From Candidatus Omnitrophota bacterium (GTDB taxonomy: Bacteria; Omnitrophota; Gorgyraeia; Gygaellales; Profunditerraquicolaceae): DNA of 52,445 bases. The position numbers and the translations under genes are program-made. Every line of letters starts with the position of its first letter. The stretch's first letter is position 1. Below the pieces are notes generated by a model. The model was not told the DNA's origin and ran no database searches. It saw only the letters and a list, made by a program, of their open reading frames with translations. Location: contig JAHIOW010000042.1 in the NCBI GenBank assembly GCA_018895075.1, positions 1-52,445 on the forward strand, given 5' to 3'. Shown here piece by piece: positions 1 through 4,491 of the stretch.

Positions 1-129
1 GAATGCAAACACGCTGTCGCTTCACTTATCATCATTGACTCCAGCTTCTTACTATCAAAGAACAAAGAACTCGCTGTTGCCTTATACAACATCAAATCAG
101 AACGATTCAAAGAAAGGCTGAAAAACTAA
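1..129 (+). CDS. 3' fragment of a CDS running in from the left edge, possibly with a SWIM zinc finger
   Basis: Frame 1 is open to TAA at 127-129: ECKHAVASLIIIDSSFLLSKNKELAVALYNIKSERFKERLKN. CKH resembles the end of a SWIM CxC..CxH motif. The start is not visible. Confidence 0.45.
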   Translation, partial: ECKHAVASLIIIDSSFLLSKNKELAVALYNIKSERFKERLKN

Positions 130-157
130 CAAACTCCTGTTCTTCATGAAATAAAAA

Positions 158-230
158 TGGGCCGTGCAGGAATCGGACCTGCAACCCCTTGCTTAAGAGG
201 CAAGTGCTCTACCGATTGAGCTAACGGCCC
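158..230 (-). tRNA. tRNA-Lys(CTT)
   Basis: Cloverleaf: acceptor GGGCCGT/ACGGCCC, D stem GCTC/GAGC, anticodon arm CTTGC-CT-CTT-AA-GCAAG, T arm GCAGG-TCCGATT-CCTGC. No encoded CCA. Confidence 0.93.
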
Positions 231-266
231 CAATTTGCTAATGGCAAATTGCAAATTGCTGATGGT

Positions 267-295
267 ATTCTAACAAATAATCCAAAATTACGCAA
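267..295 (-). promoter_or_regulatory. sigma70-type promoter for tRNA-Lys
   Basis: Minus strand reads TTGCGT-N17-TAGAAT with a TGn extension, about 35 nt upstream of the tRNA 5' end. Confidence 0.55.
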
Positions 296-371
296 TAAGC
301 TATTCGCTATTTGCCAAAATGCGCCTGGCTGGAGTCGAACCAGCAACGCCTAGCTCCGAAGGCTAGCGCTC

Positions 372-411
372 CCTGCCTGCCCCAGCCTGCCGGCTGGCAG
401 GGGCAGGCAGG
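372..411. repeat. GC-rich palindromic element, CCTGCC..GGCAGG family
   Basis: CCTGCCTGCCCC...GGGGCAGGCAGG, 12-bp arms. Related 16-bp copy at 52305-52320. Confidence 0.8.
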
Positions 412-416
412 TATCC

Positions 417-446
417 TCCGCCGAAGGCGGATCCGCCTACGGCGGA
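417..446. repeat. Tandem pair of TCCGCC-N3-GGCGGA palindromes
   Basis: TCCGCCGAAGGCGGA followed by TCCGCCTACGGCGGA. The same 15-mer occurs at 10380-10394 and 52238-52252. Confidence 0.85.
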
Positions 447-467
447 AATTGAGCTATAATTATCAAA

Positions 468-723
468 TGCGCCTAGGTGGATTCGAACCACCAAAAGCCA
501 GTTCCGCCCCTCGCCTTAATTCAGGCGGATCCCGAGTAAATTGTTTATCGCGCTCGGCGAGAGTCGAACTCGCAACGCCTAGCTCCGAAGGCTAGCGCTC
601 TATCCATTGAGCTACGAGCGCAAAATAATTCGGGTTTAATTCTATCCACCAAGGCTCGGGATCGAGTCTAAAACTTTACGAGGGACTCGAAGACTGGTGC
701 CTTATCCGTTAGGCAATAGGCGC
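468..723 (-). tRNA. Interrupted tRNA-Arg (likely TCG): 5' half 723-690, 3' half 506-468, 183-nt insert in the anticodon
   Basis: Joined halves give acceptor GCGCCTA/TAGGCGC, D arm GCCT-AACGGATA-AGGC (A20), anticodon arm CCAGT-CTTCGGA-ACTGG, T arm GGTGG-TTCGAAT-CCACC and discriminator A. A CG dinucleotide is repeated at both junctions. Confidence 0.8.
549..621 (-). tRNA. tRNA-Arg(TCG), intact, nested inside the insert of the interrupted tRNA-Arg
   Basis: Acceptor GCGCTCG/CGAGCGC, D arm GCTC-AATGGATA-GAGC, anticodon arm CTAGC-CT-TCG-GA-GCTAG, T arm GCGAG-TTCGACT-CTCGC. Confidence 0.95.
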
Positions 724-726
724 AAT

Positions 727-1446
727 CTAAATTATCTGGCACTTATCGCCTAAAATCTCTTTGATCTTATTCAGTTTCTTATTATCCACGCAACTAATAT
801 TCTCCTCGGAGGTAACGCGCACAGGTGAATTCAGGTGTATCTTATCGGGATTCACCCTATCAATAACCGCCTTTAATCTCTTGATATGCCTTAAATCATC
901 GTTTAGCCCTCTTGCTAACATCACTTCCAGCCATATTTTACCGCGGAATTCTTTCCTGAGATTCACCAAGCCCTCAATAATATCTTCTATCTTTATCTGT
1001 GAGTGCGGACGGTCAACTTTCTCAAAACAATCTCCTGTTACAGCATCCAGAGAAGGAACGATTAAATCCGCATTGCCTATTTCCCGGCGTATTGCAGAAT
1101 CCGCTAATAAAGATGAATTTGTAATCACTGCTACAGGCAAGGAAGTCAGTCTTTTAATTTCTGTGATAAGTTGGCCTATCTTAATATTTAATGTGGGTTC
1201 ACCCGAACCGGACAGAGTGATATAGTTTATTTTTTTTGCCTCCGGGCTATTATTTTGCAACCAAAGCCTCAATTCATTCAAAATCTCTTCTATCGCGATA
1301 TACTCTTTTCTCTCTTTGGTCTTCTCTCTAGTCTTACCCAACTGGCAATAGACACAGTCAAAACTGCATGTCTTATGAGGGACCAGTGTAATCCCCAAGG
1401 ATAAACCCAATCTGCGTGAATTTAGGGGACCGTATATATATTTCAT
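727..1446 (-). CDS. Radical SAM protein
   Basis: CSFDCVYC (CxxxCxxC), SGSGEPTL, N-terminal YGP..SRRLGLSLG. ATG at 1446 preferred over the ORF-track start at 1470, which lies in a repeat. Confidence 0.88.
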   Translation of the reverse strand: MKYIYGPLNSRRLGLSLGITLVPHKTCSFDCVYCQLGKTREKTKERKEYIAIEEILNELRLWLQNNSPEAKKINYITLSGSGEPTLNIKIGQLITEIKRLTSLPVAVITNSSLLADSAIRREIGNADLIVPSLDAVTGDCFEKVDRPHSQIKIEDIIEGLVNLRKEFRGKIWLEVMLARGLNDDLRHIKRLKAVIDRVNPDKIHLNSPVRVTSEENISCVDNKKLNKIKEILGDKCQII

Positions 1447-1458
1447 CGCCTGATAAAA

Positions 1459-1511
1459 ACCCCCCAACACTTCCGCTTTTAGCCTTACGCTATATTGAAA
1501 GTAGTGGGGGT
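1459..1511. repeat. Imperfect inverted repeat (MITE-like or terminator-like hairpin)
   Basis: ACCCCCCAACACTTCC ... GAAAGTAGTGGGGGT in the lpxI-radical SAM spacer. Confidence 0.5.
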
Positions 1512-1527
1512 CAGTGATATCCTCACC

Positions 1528-2331
1528 TTATATCGCCACTATAGAAATACCCCTTTGATCCGCTAATTTGATGCTTTGTTCTTTGTCTATAAAAAGAGTC
1601 TTCTCTGCCTCAATCGCCAGACACCTGGCGCCTACCCTGATAAGATTCTTTACTGTATTTAGGCCTACTACGGGTATATCAAAACGTAAATCCTGCTTGG
1701 GTTTGCTTACCTTTACTATCGTTATACCTTCCCGCGCAATTCTACCGGCGCGCCGGATGAGATTATCAGTCCCTTCTAATGCCTCAACTGCCACTATCGC
1801 CTTTTTTTTGACGGCCACAGTCTGGCCGATATCCAGGTTTGCAACTGCCTTGGCCAGGTCTAATCCGAAATATATATCTTCCCATTCTTCGGCCCCGGGT
1901 TCTTTCTCTGTCAGCGTACCTTTCTTGACTAAAAGTTCCTCGATGAAAGTAGTAGAATTTAATAATTCCAAACCGGACTCTTTGAGTTTCTCTGCGATCA
2001 TCCCGAATATTGTATCTGCCTTTTTATCCCGTATATTTGCCAGCAGGCTTCTTAACTCCTGGTCCCTGTCTATCTCTTTATTAAATAGGCGCCAGGGAGT
2101 TATCTGGCCAGCCATGACTACTTTAGTTATGCCTTCGGCCTTAAATATTTCTAAACACCGGCGGAATTCACTCAGGCCTATCCAATAGATTTTATCTACG
2201 AATTTTTTTAATTTCCGGGATGTATCGCCTTTGATGGCTACGGCTACAATATAATAATTTCTTTTTTTTGCGGCCTGCGAAAATATAATAGGTAATTTTC
2301 TGTTTCCCGCAATTAAACCGATTCTTTCCAT
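1528..2331 (-). CDS. lpxI: UDP-2,3-diacylglucosamine diphosphatase LpxI
   Basis: IGLIAGN, DIGQTV, AVEALEGTD, KPKQDLRFDIPVVG; follows lpxA. Start at 2331 (MERIG) preferred. Confidence 0.92.
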   Translation of the reverse strand: MERIGLIAGNRKLPIIFSQAAKKRNYYIVAVAIKGDTSRKLKKFVDKIYWIGLSEFRRCLEIFKAEGITKVVMAGQITPWRLFNKEIDRDQELRSLLANIRDKKADTIFGMIAEKLKESGLELLNSTTFIEELLVKKGTLTEKEPGAEEWEDIYFGLDLAKAVANLDIGQTVAVKKKAIVAVEALEGTDNLIRRAGRIAREGITIVKVSKPKQDLRFDIPVVGLNTVKNLIRVGARCLAIEAEKTLFIDKEQSIKLADQRGISIVAI

Positions 2332-2338
2332 AGGATTG

Positions 2339-3166
2339 TTATCTGTAGATATCATCTGCGGATTGCTCTAGGGTAATCCGCTTAGAACGACAGGAATGAA
2401 CTACGCCCCTTTGAGAGTTTTTTATAAAGTTGATCAGGCATAAAACTTCCTCGACAGGCTTTATTATCTCTTTCTCTAATTTTTCTAAGGCGTGTTTGGT
2501 AGAAAGGCCTGAGTTAAATAATACCTTAAATGCCTGCTTAAGCTGATTTATTGACTCTCGGGGGATACTATTACGCCTTAAACCTATAAGGTTCAGGCCG
2601 TAACAAACAGCGGGGTGGCCATCGCAGGTTGAATAGGGAGGGATATCTTGAATAACCTTAGAACAACCACCGATAATAGAAAACCTGCCTACTCTCGCAA
2701 ATTGATGTATCGCCGCAAACCCTCCTACAACTGCTCTATCCTCAATGGTTACATGTCCGGCCAGGGTGCCATTATTAGCAATAATACAATCATCGCCTAC
2801 TATACAATCATGGGCGATGTGGGCATAGGCCATGAAAAGATTATTGTTGCCCACAACAGTCCTGCCATTTTCTCCTGTGCCGGGATTAAACGTACAGTAT
2901 TCACGGATGATATTATGATTACCTATCTCTAAGAAACTCTTTTCGCCCTTATATTTTAAATCCTGCGGCGGGCTTCCCAGGACTGCGCCGGTAAAAATCT
3001 GGCAATCTTTACCGATACTGGTGTTGCCTTCTATTACGCAATAAGCGCCGAGCCTGGTGCCTGAACCTATGACAACATTATTTCCGATAATAGTATAGGG
3101 CCCGATTTGGACACCTTTAGCTAATTTTGCTCCTTTAGAGACTATGGCTGTGGAATCTATCTGCAT
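2339..3166 (-). CDS. lpxA: UDP-N-acetylglucosamine acyltransferase
   Basis: Hexapeptide repeats, PQDLKY, AHIAHDC, HQFARVG, GLNLIGLRR. Confidence 0.96.
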   Translation of the reverse strand: MQIDSTAIVSKGAKLAKGVQIGPYTIIGNNVVIGSGTRLGAYCVIEGNTSIGKDCQIFTGAVLGSPPQDLKYKGEKSFLEIGNHNIIREYCTFNPGTGENGRTVVGNNNLFMAYAHIAHDCIVGDDCIIANNGTLAGHVTIEDRAVVGGFAAIHQFARVGRFSIIGGCSKVIQDIPPYSTCDGHPAVCYGLNLIGLRRNSIPRESINQLKQAFKVLFNSGLSTKHALEKLEKEIIKPVEEVLCLINFIKNSQRGVVHSCRSKRITLEQSADDIYR

Positions 3167-3174
3167 ATCTTAAT

Positions 3175-4491
3175 CTATCCTTCAACCAAGGCAAACATCA
3201 TATCTGCCTCTGAAACTACCTTACCATCCACTAATGCCTTACCGTGTACCCGGCCTGTCTTGGATTTTATCTTATCTGCTTCTACGCGCAAGAGAAGCTG
3301 GTCACCCGGGACTACCGTCTTTCTAAATTTTATATTGTCCGCGGCAAGAAAATAGGCCAGTTTTCCCCGGTTCTCTTCCGGAGAAAGCATCATTACCCCG
3401 CCTACCTGCGCCATGGCCTCAATAATCAAAACCCCTGGCATAACCGGTTTTCCCGGAAAATGCCCTTTAAAGAAATACTCATCTTTAGTGACATTCTTTA
3501 TACCCACAGCATATTTGCCCTGCTTTAAAGATATAATCTTATCCACGAAGAGAAAAGGCGGGCGGTGAGGCAGTATCTTCATAATTGCCTCCCGGTCTAA
3601 TTCCCCTTCCTCGCCCGGATGATAACCTATACCCACGCCACCTAAAGAATATCTTTGTCTTTGCTGGTCTATCTTTTTTAAGAGTTTCAGGTTTAAGGCG
3701 TGTCCGCTTCTTAAGGCAATGATATGGCTCCTTATGGGTTGGCCGAGAAGAAACAAGTCTCCCACTAAATCCAGTATCTTATGCCGGATGAATTCGTTTT
3801 CATAACGCAATTTATTCTTGATGATGCCGCTTTTACCTACGACTATTGTATTATCATAAGTTGCCCCGCCGCCCAAACCCTGTTCTCGCAATCTGGATGC
3901 CTCATCTTCAAGGCAAAATGTACGCGCAGAGGCAAGTTCATCCTTAAATATATTGCCATTTAAATTTATCTCCATAAATTCTATCTTCAGCAAGGGGTGG
4001 TTATAATTTAAGATGTAGGAGATTTTAAAATCCTGAGAGGGTATGGCTACGATAGAAGCGTCGTCCTCTTCTACAAAGATAGGCTCTTTGAGGAAATAAT
4101 ATTGGCGCGGTTTTTCCTGCTCTACAACGCCTGCCTGAGATAAAATCTCCAAGAACTCCCGGCTACTTCCGTCCATGCCCGGTATTTCGTTATTATCAAT
4201 TTCAATTAAGATATTATCTATATCCAGGCCCGATAATGCCGCCATAAGATGCTCAATGGTATGTATCTGGATGTTATCCTTGCCCAGGGAGGTACGGCGC
4301 ATACTGGAGCCTTGAGGAAGTAAATATTCAATTGAGGCCTTAATCAGGGGAGTGGAAGCTAAATCTGTGCGCAGGAAGTTGATGCCGCTATCTACCTTAG
4401 CCGGCCTAAAGGTTATATTTACCTTATGTGCGGTGTGTATCCCCACGCCATTGATGCTGACTTCTTTTGCGATTGTCTTTTGTCTATCCAT
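3175..4491 (-). CDS. lpxC/fabZ: Bifunctional LpxC deacetylase / FabZ dehydratase fusion
   Basis: N-terminal [23 protein letters not shown] (LpxC); C-terminal [31 protein letters not shown] (FabZ). Confidence 0.95.

Follow-up and report, generated by a model that had tools for sequence, protein, structure and literature searches.

A nested tRNA-Arg(UCG) gene in Omnitrophota is probably the cargo of a small mobile element that disrupts and replaces its target

Introduction

Integrative elements, which include prophages, integrative and conjugative elements (ICEs) and archaeal plasmids and viruses, are kilobases long, carry their own recombinase and duplicate only the 3´ part of the target tRNA gene as att repeats. 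Among short elements, REPINs are doublets of repetitive extragenic palindromic (REP) sequences that are moved by RAYT (REP-associated tyrosine) transposases. Group I introns in the anticodon loops of bacterial tRNA genes are described by Williams (2020, 10.1101/2020.01.27.920355), and an integrase-borne element that splits and restores a tRNA-Thr gene is reported for Caldiarchaeum (PMC3293823). Here, we describe a different arrangement in a stretch of 52,445 nucleotides from a Candidatus Omnitrophota bacterium (contig JAHIOW010000042.1 of assembly GCA_018895075.1; this whole stretch is called the window). A complete tRNA-Arg(UCG) gene lies within a 183-nt insert, which we named E1, and the insert interrupts the anticodon loop of a second tRNA-Arg(UCG) gene. 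Searches of an open literature library brought up no bacterial tRNA gene with another tRNA gene inside it.

Comparison of the locus with related genomes and with metagenome contigs indicates that E1 is probably a small non-coding, site-specific mobile DNA element, which disrupts the resident tRNA-Arg(UCG) gene and supplies a replacement for it. The recurrence of the structure in related groundwater bacteria points to a new kind of small mobile element. In what follows, genomes of the order are labeled G (G000 is the source genome), fetched loci are labeled L, and X1, X2, X3 and X6 are groundwater DNA runs.

Results

Structure of the nested locus

The whole region was read on the minus strand and was examined mostly as positions 1-1500 of the window. 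From 5´ to 3´ on the minus strand, the nested locus comprises the following parts:

690-723, minus strand: 5´ half of the outer (A-type, resident) tRNA-Arg(UCG), 34 nt, with the acceptor 5´ strand, D arm, anticodon stem 5´ strand and CTT
507-689, minus strand: E1 insert, 183 nt between the outer halves
655-689, minus strand: 5´ arm, hairpin HP1 with box a in its loop, followed by box b
622-654, minus strand: AT-rich spacer with a -10-like TAGAAT at 644-639
549-621, minus strand: inner tRNA-Arg(UCG), the B1 cargo (ARAGORN 548-622; Rfam tRNA 67.1 bits, gathering score 29)
507-536, minus strand: 3´ arm, box b´, followed by box a´ in the loop of hairpin HP2
468-506, minus strand: 3´ half of the outer tRNA-Arg(UCG), 39 nt, with CGGA, anticodon stem 3´ strand, variable loop, T arm, acceptor 3´ strand and discriminator

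This geometry, with the outer halves at 723-690 and 506-468 around the insert and the inner tRNA, is the one put forward in the original prediction, and each coordinate was confirmed. The outer halves combine into a cloverleaf in which all pairs are Watson-Crick (7/7, 4/4, 5/5 and 5/5), again as predicted. A CG dinucleotide is present at both junctions, so that the boundary of the insert is ambiguous by 2 nt; the ligated outer gene, as splicing would produce it, would carry the junction CCAGTCTTCGGAACTGG. When the insert is deleted in silico, ARAGORN calls the outer gene tRNA-Arg(tcg). In place, the outer gene is not called by ARAGORN with introns allowed and thresholds lowered, and only the inner tRNA is found. 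Because tRNA finders miss them, such outer genes are invisible in current annotation.

The 256-nt precursor has a minimum free energy (MFE) of -102.9 kcal/mol (z = -4.31), which is equaled by 0 of 200 shuffles. The MFE fold retains the four outer arms, and its extended anticodon stem is capped by the inner cloverleaf, in agreement with the fold that had been proposed. The insert contains no open reading frame (ORF). The inner tRNA is the sole intact tRNA-Arg(TCG) found by ARAGORN in the source metagenome-assembled genome (MAG), which comprises 1.05 Mb in 73 contigs and is 88.3% complete. ARAGORN detected 36 tRNA genes in this 88%-complete MAG, with the Arg anticodons TCT, CCT, CCG and TCG and no ACG or GCG; if the latter two are truly absent, the codons CGU, CGC and CGA would all fall to tRNA-Arg(UCG).

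The two arms, which are ~35 nt each, both follow the pattern YCCCTCG-N16/17-ATCCCGAG when read inward. Three sets of pairings can be drawn, of which the first consists of two long-range helices between the arms. Box a (CCCTCG, 684-679) can pair with box a´ (CGAGGG, 513-508), with CCCTTG/CAAGGG in G126, and box b (GATCCCGAG, 663-655) can pair with box b´ (CTCGGGATC, 536-528); both inverted repeats were found where they had been predicted. In HP1, CGAGTC (689-684) pairs with GACTCG (668-663). In HP2, TCCGCC (529-524) pairs with GGCGGA (508-503), and this 3´ strand crosses the junction into the outer 3´ half. The stems of both hairpins contain junction nucleotides, the loops hold a and a´, and both stems covary between copies, being CGGAGCC/GGCTCCG and CGGAAT/ATTCCG elsewhere for HP1, and TCCAGTC/GACTGGA and TTCCG/CGGAA for HP2. 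RNAalifold on five copies also gave an alternative pairing of box a and TTAAATTT with AAATTTAA and box b´. Since many alternative helices can form, the arms fit nested inverted DNA repeats at least as well as a single RNA fold. E1 copies from four genera are 80-88% identical, with the tRNA, the boxes and the hairpin stems kept and the spacers not. A TAGAAT or TATAAT lies 20 nt past the T[AT]GACT of HP1 in six copies (the window, L161, L163, L167, L169 and L178), and on this sequence pattern the spacer TAGAAT may be the element's own promoter.

Filled and empty alleles

Logan contigs, which were built independently from four groundwater DNA runs of four studies, were aligned to window 1-1500. 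X1, the best-matching run, is possibly the source sample and does not count as independent evidence; the three remaining runs (X2, X3 and X6) belong to different studies. The filled 5´ junction was observed in X1, X3 and X6, and the filled 3´ junction in X1 and on contig C6 of the source MAG (contigs spanning 477-600 and 577-717 in X1, 585-1151 with 0 differences in X3, and 624-717 in X6). A direct joint from 504 to 688, which skips 183 nt with 2 nt shared, was present in three of the four runs, on two contigs each in X1, X2 and X6. The empty-allele contig of X2, 9796 nt in length, shows 0 differences to the window over 418-504 and 688-1500. Its restored gene reads CCAGT-CTTCGGA-ACTGG, which is an ordinary tRNA-Arg(UCG) with the loop CTTCGGA. 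Since the flanks on this contig are identical and the gap measures exactly 183 nt, the insert is shown to be a presence/absence polymorphism of the DNA, with exact boundaries and in near-identical backgrounds. The original prediction had looked to related DNA for such empty alleles. It had also considered a shifted register with a GCG anticodon, which is refuted: CTTCGGA, with the anticodon UCG, is the loop of the empty allele and of every intact orthologue.

The same contigs bear on the possibility that the assembly is at fault and has fused two separate tRNA-Arg loci into a chimera close to a MAG contig end. The locus does lie within 723 nt of the contig end, short repeats are common to tRNA genes, and there is a fork in the assembly graph at window 466/465, where contig C6 diverges after a terminal stretch of 124 nt that is the same as window 589-466 and covers the 3´ part of the inner tRNA, the 3´ arm and the 3´ half of the outer gene. 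The point of divergence, however, places the fork downstream of the nested structure and not within it. Both junctions are covered by contigs assembled independently from other runs and studies, the 3´ junction is repeated on C6, and the same architecture is found in MAGs and metagenome contigs of other projects and assemblers, which together leave a chimeric join extremely improbable. The fork could be a strain variant or a paralogous locus. Its C6 branch (G000:C6:4688-4819) leads to a different tRNA-Lys(CUU), archease and RtcB, and the window branch leads to a tRNA-Arg remnant and another tRNA-Lys; past their tRNA-Lys, the two branches have ~26 nt in common (..CCCATTTTTATTTCATGAAGAAC).

Recurrence of the element at a single loop position

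The pattern CTTCGN{3,4}CCCTYGN{8,28}YCCCGA, which represents the 5´ junction and arm, was run on 234 genomes of the order. It matched eight genomes, with two matches in the controls, and six of the eight were read as real: G000, G079, G083, G114 (two sites), G126 and G127 (two sites), all of one family and from five genera. A metagenome scan with the E1 5´-arm pattern gave 35 loci, which were read as E1 in tRNA-Arg in 10 cases and as chance matches in GC-rich coding DNA in the other 25. No E1 copy was found outside tRNA-Arg genes among the six genomes and the 10 metagenome contigs.

Matching of arms in the manner of brackets gave 12 pairs of 5´ and 3´ arms, and the anticodon-stem strands that flank them pair 5/5 in 11 cases and 4/5 in one. 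The targets represent eight different anticodon-stem sequences and at least eight tRNA-Arg(UCG) backbones, with the same loop position throughout; only the registers 35/36 or 36/37 satisfy the junctions of both element types. The E1 type has the arms CGAGTCCCTCG..GACTCGATCCCGAG / CTCGGGATCCGCC..GGCGAGGGGCG and the cargo B1. The second type, E2, has other hairpin stems and the cargo B2, or once, in G127, a GCGCCTG-type B tRNA. CG is present on both sides in 8/8 E1-type pairs (with GGGGCG followed by GA at the right junction), and the junction repeat of E2 is 4-5 nt. In every copy with a readable cargo, the cargo anticodon is that of the target. An element that disrupts and replaces a gene needs such a match and a spliced intron does not, so the matching cargo favors the former.

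Two other patterns were rejected. TCCCGAGN{80,220}CTCGGGAT matched 39 of the 234 genomes, mostly by chance, and did reveal G083, G114, G126, G127 and unrelated box modules. CCCTYGN{10,26}YCCCGAG matched 164 of 234 genomes with similar counts in the controls and was treated as noise; among the regions shown, out of 20 fetched with it, nearly all were coding DNA or small intergenic box modules, and none held a nested tRNA. The box modules TCCCGAG-N24-CGAGGGA and TCCCTCG-N24-CTCGGGA (L060, G043:C1; L061, G044:C101; L062, G031:C1; L114, G043:C32) flank tRNA-Pro 3´ remnants just past intact tRNA-Pro(UGG) and tRNA-Pro(GGG). They also enclose a promoter-like 57-nt stretch between tRNA-Val and tRNA-Asp, and those of G043:C32 form a tandem array with a period of ~77 nt. 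A similar replacement may affect other tRNAs.

Nests and the decay of outer copies

Nesting reaches two to four levels in G114, G127, L167 and L169. In G114, the target contains an E1, whose cargo is partly deleted with a hairpin replacing the T loop; this E1 contains an E2 (B2), which in turn contains an E1 (B1). In G127, a decayed target contains an E2-like element with the GCGCCTG-type cargo, and this element contains an E1 (B1). L167 has a B-type gene with an E2 (B2) and an E1 inside it, and L169 has an A-type gene with an E1 that holds an E2.

The tRNA at the center is intact in every case, and degradation is frequent among the outer copies. After in silico deletion of the inserts, ARAGORN recognizes 5/8 outer copies from GTDB genomes. 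The calls are clean for G000, for the outer copies L1 and L2 of G114 and for G083, and doubtful for G079, because of a palindrome in its D loop; no tRNA-Arg is called in G126 or in the outer copies L1 and L2 of G127. The lesions of outer copies comprise D-loop palindromes, T-loop hairpins, an absent 5´ acceptor strand and an absent 3´ half. A GC-rich palindrome lies between GGATA and GAGCG of the D loop in G079, G126, G127, L163, L167, L176, L186 and a further remnant in the window, and no palindrome or hairpin insert of the kind seen in outer copies was found in any intact inner copy. The outer T loop of G083 reads TTTGAGT, with C56 lost. In L176 and L186, a 5´ remnant and the 5´ arm are kept and the intact tRNA continues directly into the downstream flank, a layout that looks as if the inner tRNA had recombined with the 3´ half of the outer gene. 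In the B1-type remnants L097 (G114:C75) and L099 (G127:C33), which come from two genera, the T loop is replaced by a similar 34-nt hairpin (TCCCTTCGC...GCGAAGGGT).

The resident site and its neighbors

The nested locus is flanked by the following features:

727-1470, minus strand: gene for a radical S-adenosylmethionine (radical-SAM) protein, 247 aa, CxxxCxxC; conserved upstream neighbor of the tRNA-Arg(UCG) site
320-456, minus strand: further tRNA-Arg(UCG) remnant, Rfam tRNA 24 bits, below the gathering score
158-230, minus strand: tRNA-Lys(CUU), found by ARAGORN and Rfam; conserved downstream neighbor

The radical-SAM gene ends 3 nt before the outer 5´ half. With its protein as the query, 32 related loci were obtained, and a tRNA-Arg(TCG) lies downstream in 27 of them. 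In 17 of the 27, an intact tRNA-Arg(TCG), either of A type or of one of several B types, is located 4-12 nt past the radical-SAM gene. An uninterrupted orthologue of the outer, A-type gene follows the radical-SAM gene in G026 and G036, and further intact A-type orthologues are present in L036, L039, L041-L043 and L049. The inner B1 tRNA matches, at 100% identity, the resident gene of G024 and G011, which has no arms and likewise stands after the radical-SAM gene. In L030, L035, L037 and L058, a tRNA-Arg 5´ half ending in CTTCG is followed by window-like arms and then by an intact tRNA-Arg.

The remnant at 320-456 has no 5´ acceptor strand. It consists of the D-stem and the start of the D loop, TAGCTCAATTT (456-446), palindromes (445-372) and an intact 3´ part (371-320), and the metagenome locus L163 has the same layout. 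The palindromic part of its D loop (372-445) comprises three GC-rich palindromes, CCGCCGTAGGCGG, ATCCGCCTTCGGCGGAGGAT and a 40-nt CCTGCC...GGCAGG hairpin; the D-loop palindromes of the window are repeated in a REP-like manner on many G000 contigs and in many relatives. The T loop of the tRNA-Lys(CUU) is TCCGATT, with C at the normally conserved U55, and the intact A-type tRNA-Arg of L049 has the same C in place of U55.

Splicing machinery

A cmscan of window 1-3000 against 4227 Rfam families (E<=1) returned tRNA hits and two chance hits, and no group I intron or other ribozyme. A bulge-helix-bulge, defined by two 3-nt bulges and a 4-bp helix, was found neither in the fold nor at the junctions, and its 4-bp central helix would consume Gs that pair with box a. 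The original prediction, which had seen no group I core and no clean bulge-helix-bulge, is borne out on both points. The splicing endonuclease EndA (PF01974) gave 0 matches in G000 at 88.3% completeness, with a positive control that matched in four archaea.

RtcB, which the original prediction had named as worth checking, and archease are both present in G000. RtcB (G000:C6:2631-3938) and archease (4084-4488) lie directly past the tRNA-Lys on C6, on the same strand, and in G000:C6, G083, G114, G126 and G127 the pair follows downstream at a distance of 0.1-2 kb, likewise on the same strand. RtcB occurs in 37 of 41 relatives and adjoins an uninterrupted tRNA-Arg in G010, G011, G017, G021, G027 and G040. 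The order radical-SAM gene, tRNA-Arg(UCG), tRNA-Lys(CUU), archease, RtcB is conserved across the order (G000:C6:2631-4580 and others). Since the order from tRNA-Arg to RtcB is also found where the tRNA-Arg is uninterrupted, the linkage belongs to the locus and not to the insert, and RtcB synteny was judged non-specific as support for splicing. The tRNAs for Arg and Lys are well-known substrates of anticodon nucleases, so that the link to an RNA repair ligase may have a meaning of its own. In G127:C33:78589-81426 and G012:C35:3300-6140, the RtcB match is split, with residues 1-51 and 49-426 ~1.5 kb apart in one frame of 996-998 aa, which looks like a putative intein-type insertion.

Discussion

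Disruption of the resident gene and its replacement by the cargo is the reading that we favor, because the cargo matches the target, the inner copies are intact whereas the outer copies carry lesions, and no known intron machinery was found. We infer from these sequence comparisons that the outer gene is disrupted and replaced rather than spliced. Of the two readings offered by the original prediction, the evidence thus supports the element that carries its own replacement, and the intron that yields two tRNAs received no direct support. In the favored reading, insertion at the anticodon CG (35/36 or 36/37) of a resident tRNA-Arg(UCG) would destroy the resident gene, and the cargo tRNA would take over its job. 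A host whose destroyed gene is replaced by the cargo could not simply lose the element by imprecise deletion. As the cargo has the same anticodon loop, it would itself become the next target, which would give rise to the nests. The outer gene would presumably not be rescued by splicing. The cargo would be expressed perhaps from a putative spacer promoter, or else by read-through, and would be matured by RNase P and RNase Z. Insertion would probably be catalyzed in trans by a recombinase or transposase that recognizes the folded arms and the anticodon loop, and the shared CG would represent either the crossover or a duplicated target.

Y1 (HUH) transposases were tried as the mover, since they occur in G000 and in four of the five other nest genomes, and were rejected because they are not linked to the boxes; the two Y1_Tnp genes of G000 (C46 and C48) have no boxes or palindromes within ~260 nt of their flanks.

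A number of observations weigh against disruption and replacement. No mobilizing enzyme was identified, the two Y1 genes of G000 being free of element boxes in their flanks, and E1 is single-copy per genome outside nests, unlike ordinary miniature inverted-repeat transposable elements (MITEs). A scan of window 100-1000 for consensus promoters and terminators (16-18 nt spacing) found none, and hence no sigma-70 promoter in the insert. The genes for RtcB and archease follow immediately downstream in the same orientation. The outer genes are perfect in G000, L161, L163, L181, L184 and G114 L2, and the outer 5´ half of L181 is identical to that of the window, though the elements differ; the intact state of these genes could be due to selection on an outer tRNA that is spliced, and not to a recent insertion. 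The decay of outer copies discriminates weakly between the readings, because even an outer tRNA that is spliced would be redundant next to an inner copy. In the folded arms, the junctions lie at the feet of two covarying hairpins that surround a four-way junction, an arrangement that also suits an RNA-processing signal.

E1 could, with a rather low probability, be a new mobile bacterial tRNA intron, in which an endonuclease cuts at the two CGs, RtcB and archease join the outer halves, and RNase P and RNase Z free the inner tRNA. With the outer halves joined and the inner tRNA freed, one transcript would give two tRNA-Arg(UCG). In the fold that belongs to this reading, a four-way junction would be formed by the anticodon stem, the hairpins HP1 and HP2 and the long b/b´ stem. 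Perfect outer cloverleaves in at least six copies, with acceptor and anticodon stems that differ and yet fit each other, argue for this intron, as do hairpins HP1 and HP2, which change in sequence and stay paired with the junction nucleotides included, arms that are conserved across elements of 80-88% identity, the favorable fold of the whole precursor (z = -4.31), and the proximity of RtcB and archease in the five genomes named above. RNase P and RNase Z ends, however, are not RtcB substrates. Among the 24 runs matching the locus there is no RNA run, EndA was not found in the 88%-complete MAG, and no bulge-helix-bulge was found, the 3´ strand having only 1-4 unpaired nt beside box a´. The junction lies within the anticodon and not at 37/38, and the tRNA-Arg/tRNA-Lys/archease/RtcB synteny is general and includes uninterrupted tRNA-Arg genes. 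Outer copies with D- or T-loop palindromes or with no acceptor strand could not be rescued by one splice, and a cargo with the same anticodon is unneeded by an intron. The most complete form of this proposal, a new class of bacterial tRNA intron with a four-way junction, a nuclease cut at the CGs, sealing by RtcB-archease, spread of the intron as DNA and at least two tRNA-Arg(UCG) per transcript, appears marginally less probable still.

An unlikely explanation, and one less probable than the intron, is that there is no self-mobile element. Duplication, gene conversion and the insertion of REP-like palindromes at a tRNA-Arg hot spot would then have produced the nests incidentally, and homologous recombination would have spread them between strains. 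This explanation would account for the site past the radical-SAM gene, which holds an A, B, B1 or B2 tRNA-Arg depending on the genome and includes the hybrids L028 and L051, and for the identity of cargo B1 to the arm-less resident gene of G024 and G011. L176 and L186 resemble recombinants of an inner tRNA with an outer 3´ half, and GC-rich palindromes and box modules are scattered in these genomes. Homologous exchange cannot account, however, for insertion into both A- and B-type targets, which have only the 7-nt loop at the junction in common. The boundaries are nucleotide-identical in eight different backbones, and the empty allele lacks exactly the 183 nt, the shared sequence at the joint being only 2 nt long; both observations speak against passive recombination.

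If E1 does disrupt and replace its target, it would be a very small, protein-less selfish element that makes itself indispensable by carrying a replacement for the essential tRNA gene that it hits. It would explain why the tRNA-Arg(UCG) past the radical-SAM gene changes type so frequently among Omnitrophota, why dead tRNA halves pile up at this site, and why elements compete for one site, with E1 inside E2 inside E1. It would also point to a machinery that recognizes a 7-nt anticodon loop in at least eight different stems. If the intron reading were true, the locus would represent the first protein-dependent tRNA splicing in bacteria and would provide a natural role and splicing substrate for RtcB-archease.

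Comparison with known systems

E1 shares features with each of the closest described systems. Like the group I introns of bacterial tRNA genes, it is inserted in the anticodon loop and is present or absent at the population level; unlike them, it gave no ribozyme match, leaves ~110 nt outside the inner tRNA and has no P3-P9 core. Archaeal and eukaryal bulge-helix-bulge introns, among which are multiple, transposed and split forms, resemble it in the interruption of the anticodon region, in the D- and T-loop interruptions of some copies and in the presence of RtcB and archease. E1 differs from them in that it occurs in a bacterium in which no EndA was found, has no bulge-helix-bulge motif, has its junction inside the anticodon and holds a complete tRNA in the insert.

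With MITEs and REPINs, E1 has in common that it is short and non-coding, with inverted hairpin ends, a 2-nt junction repeat, box motifs that occur elsewhere and Y1/HUH genes in the genome. Terminal inverted repeats and a putative short target duplication, as in a MITE, were both found, CG being either the duplication or a crossover core. Dispersed copies and an autonomous partner were not found, as G000 holds one copy and the C6 fork copy, and G000 has no REP-flanked Y1 gene of the REPIN/RAYT kind. E1 is set apart from both by a functional gene as cargo, one strict target, a single copy except in nests and the lack of a linked transposase.

The likeness to integrative elements, such as prophages, ICEs and archaeal plasmids and viruses, lies in the choice of a specific site within a tRNA gene for insertion, frequently the anticodon loop, in a working tRNA that is maintained by the sequence of the element, in the tRNA fragments that are left behind, and in heterogeneous alleles in natural populations. 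Neither an element-encoded recombinase nor direct repeats of the tRNA 3´ part are found in E1. Unlike integrative elements, E1 is 183 nt in length, has no ORF and a junction repeat of 2-5 nt, and carries a whole, independent tRNA gene inside.

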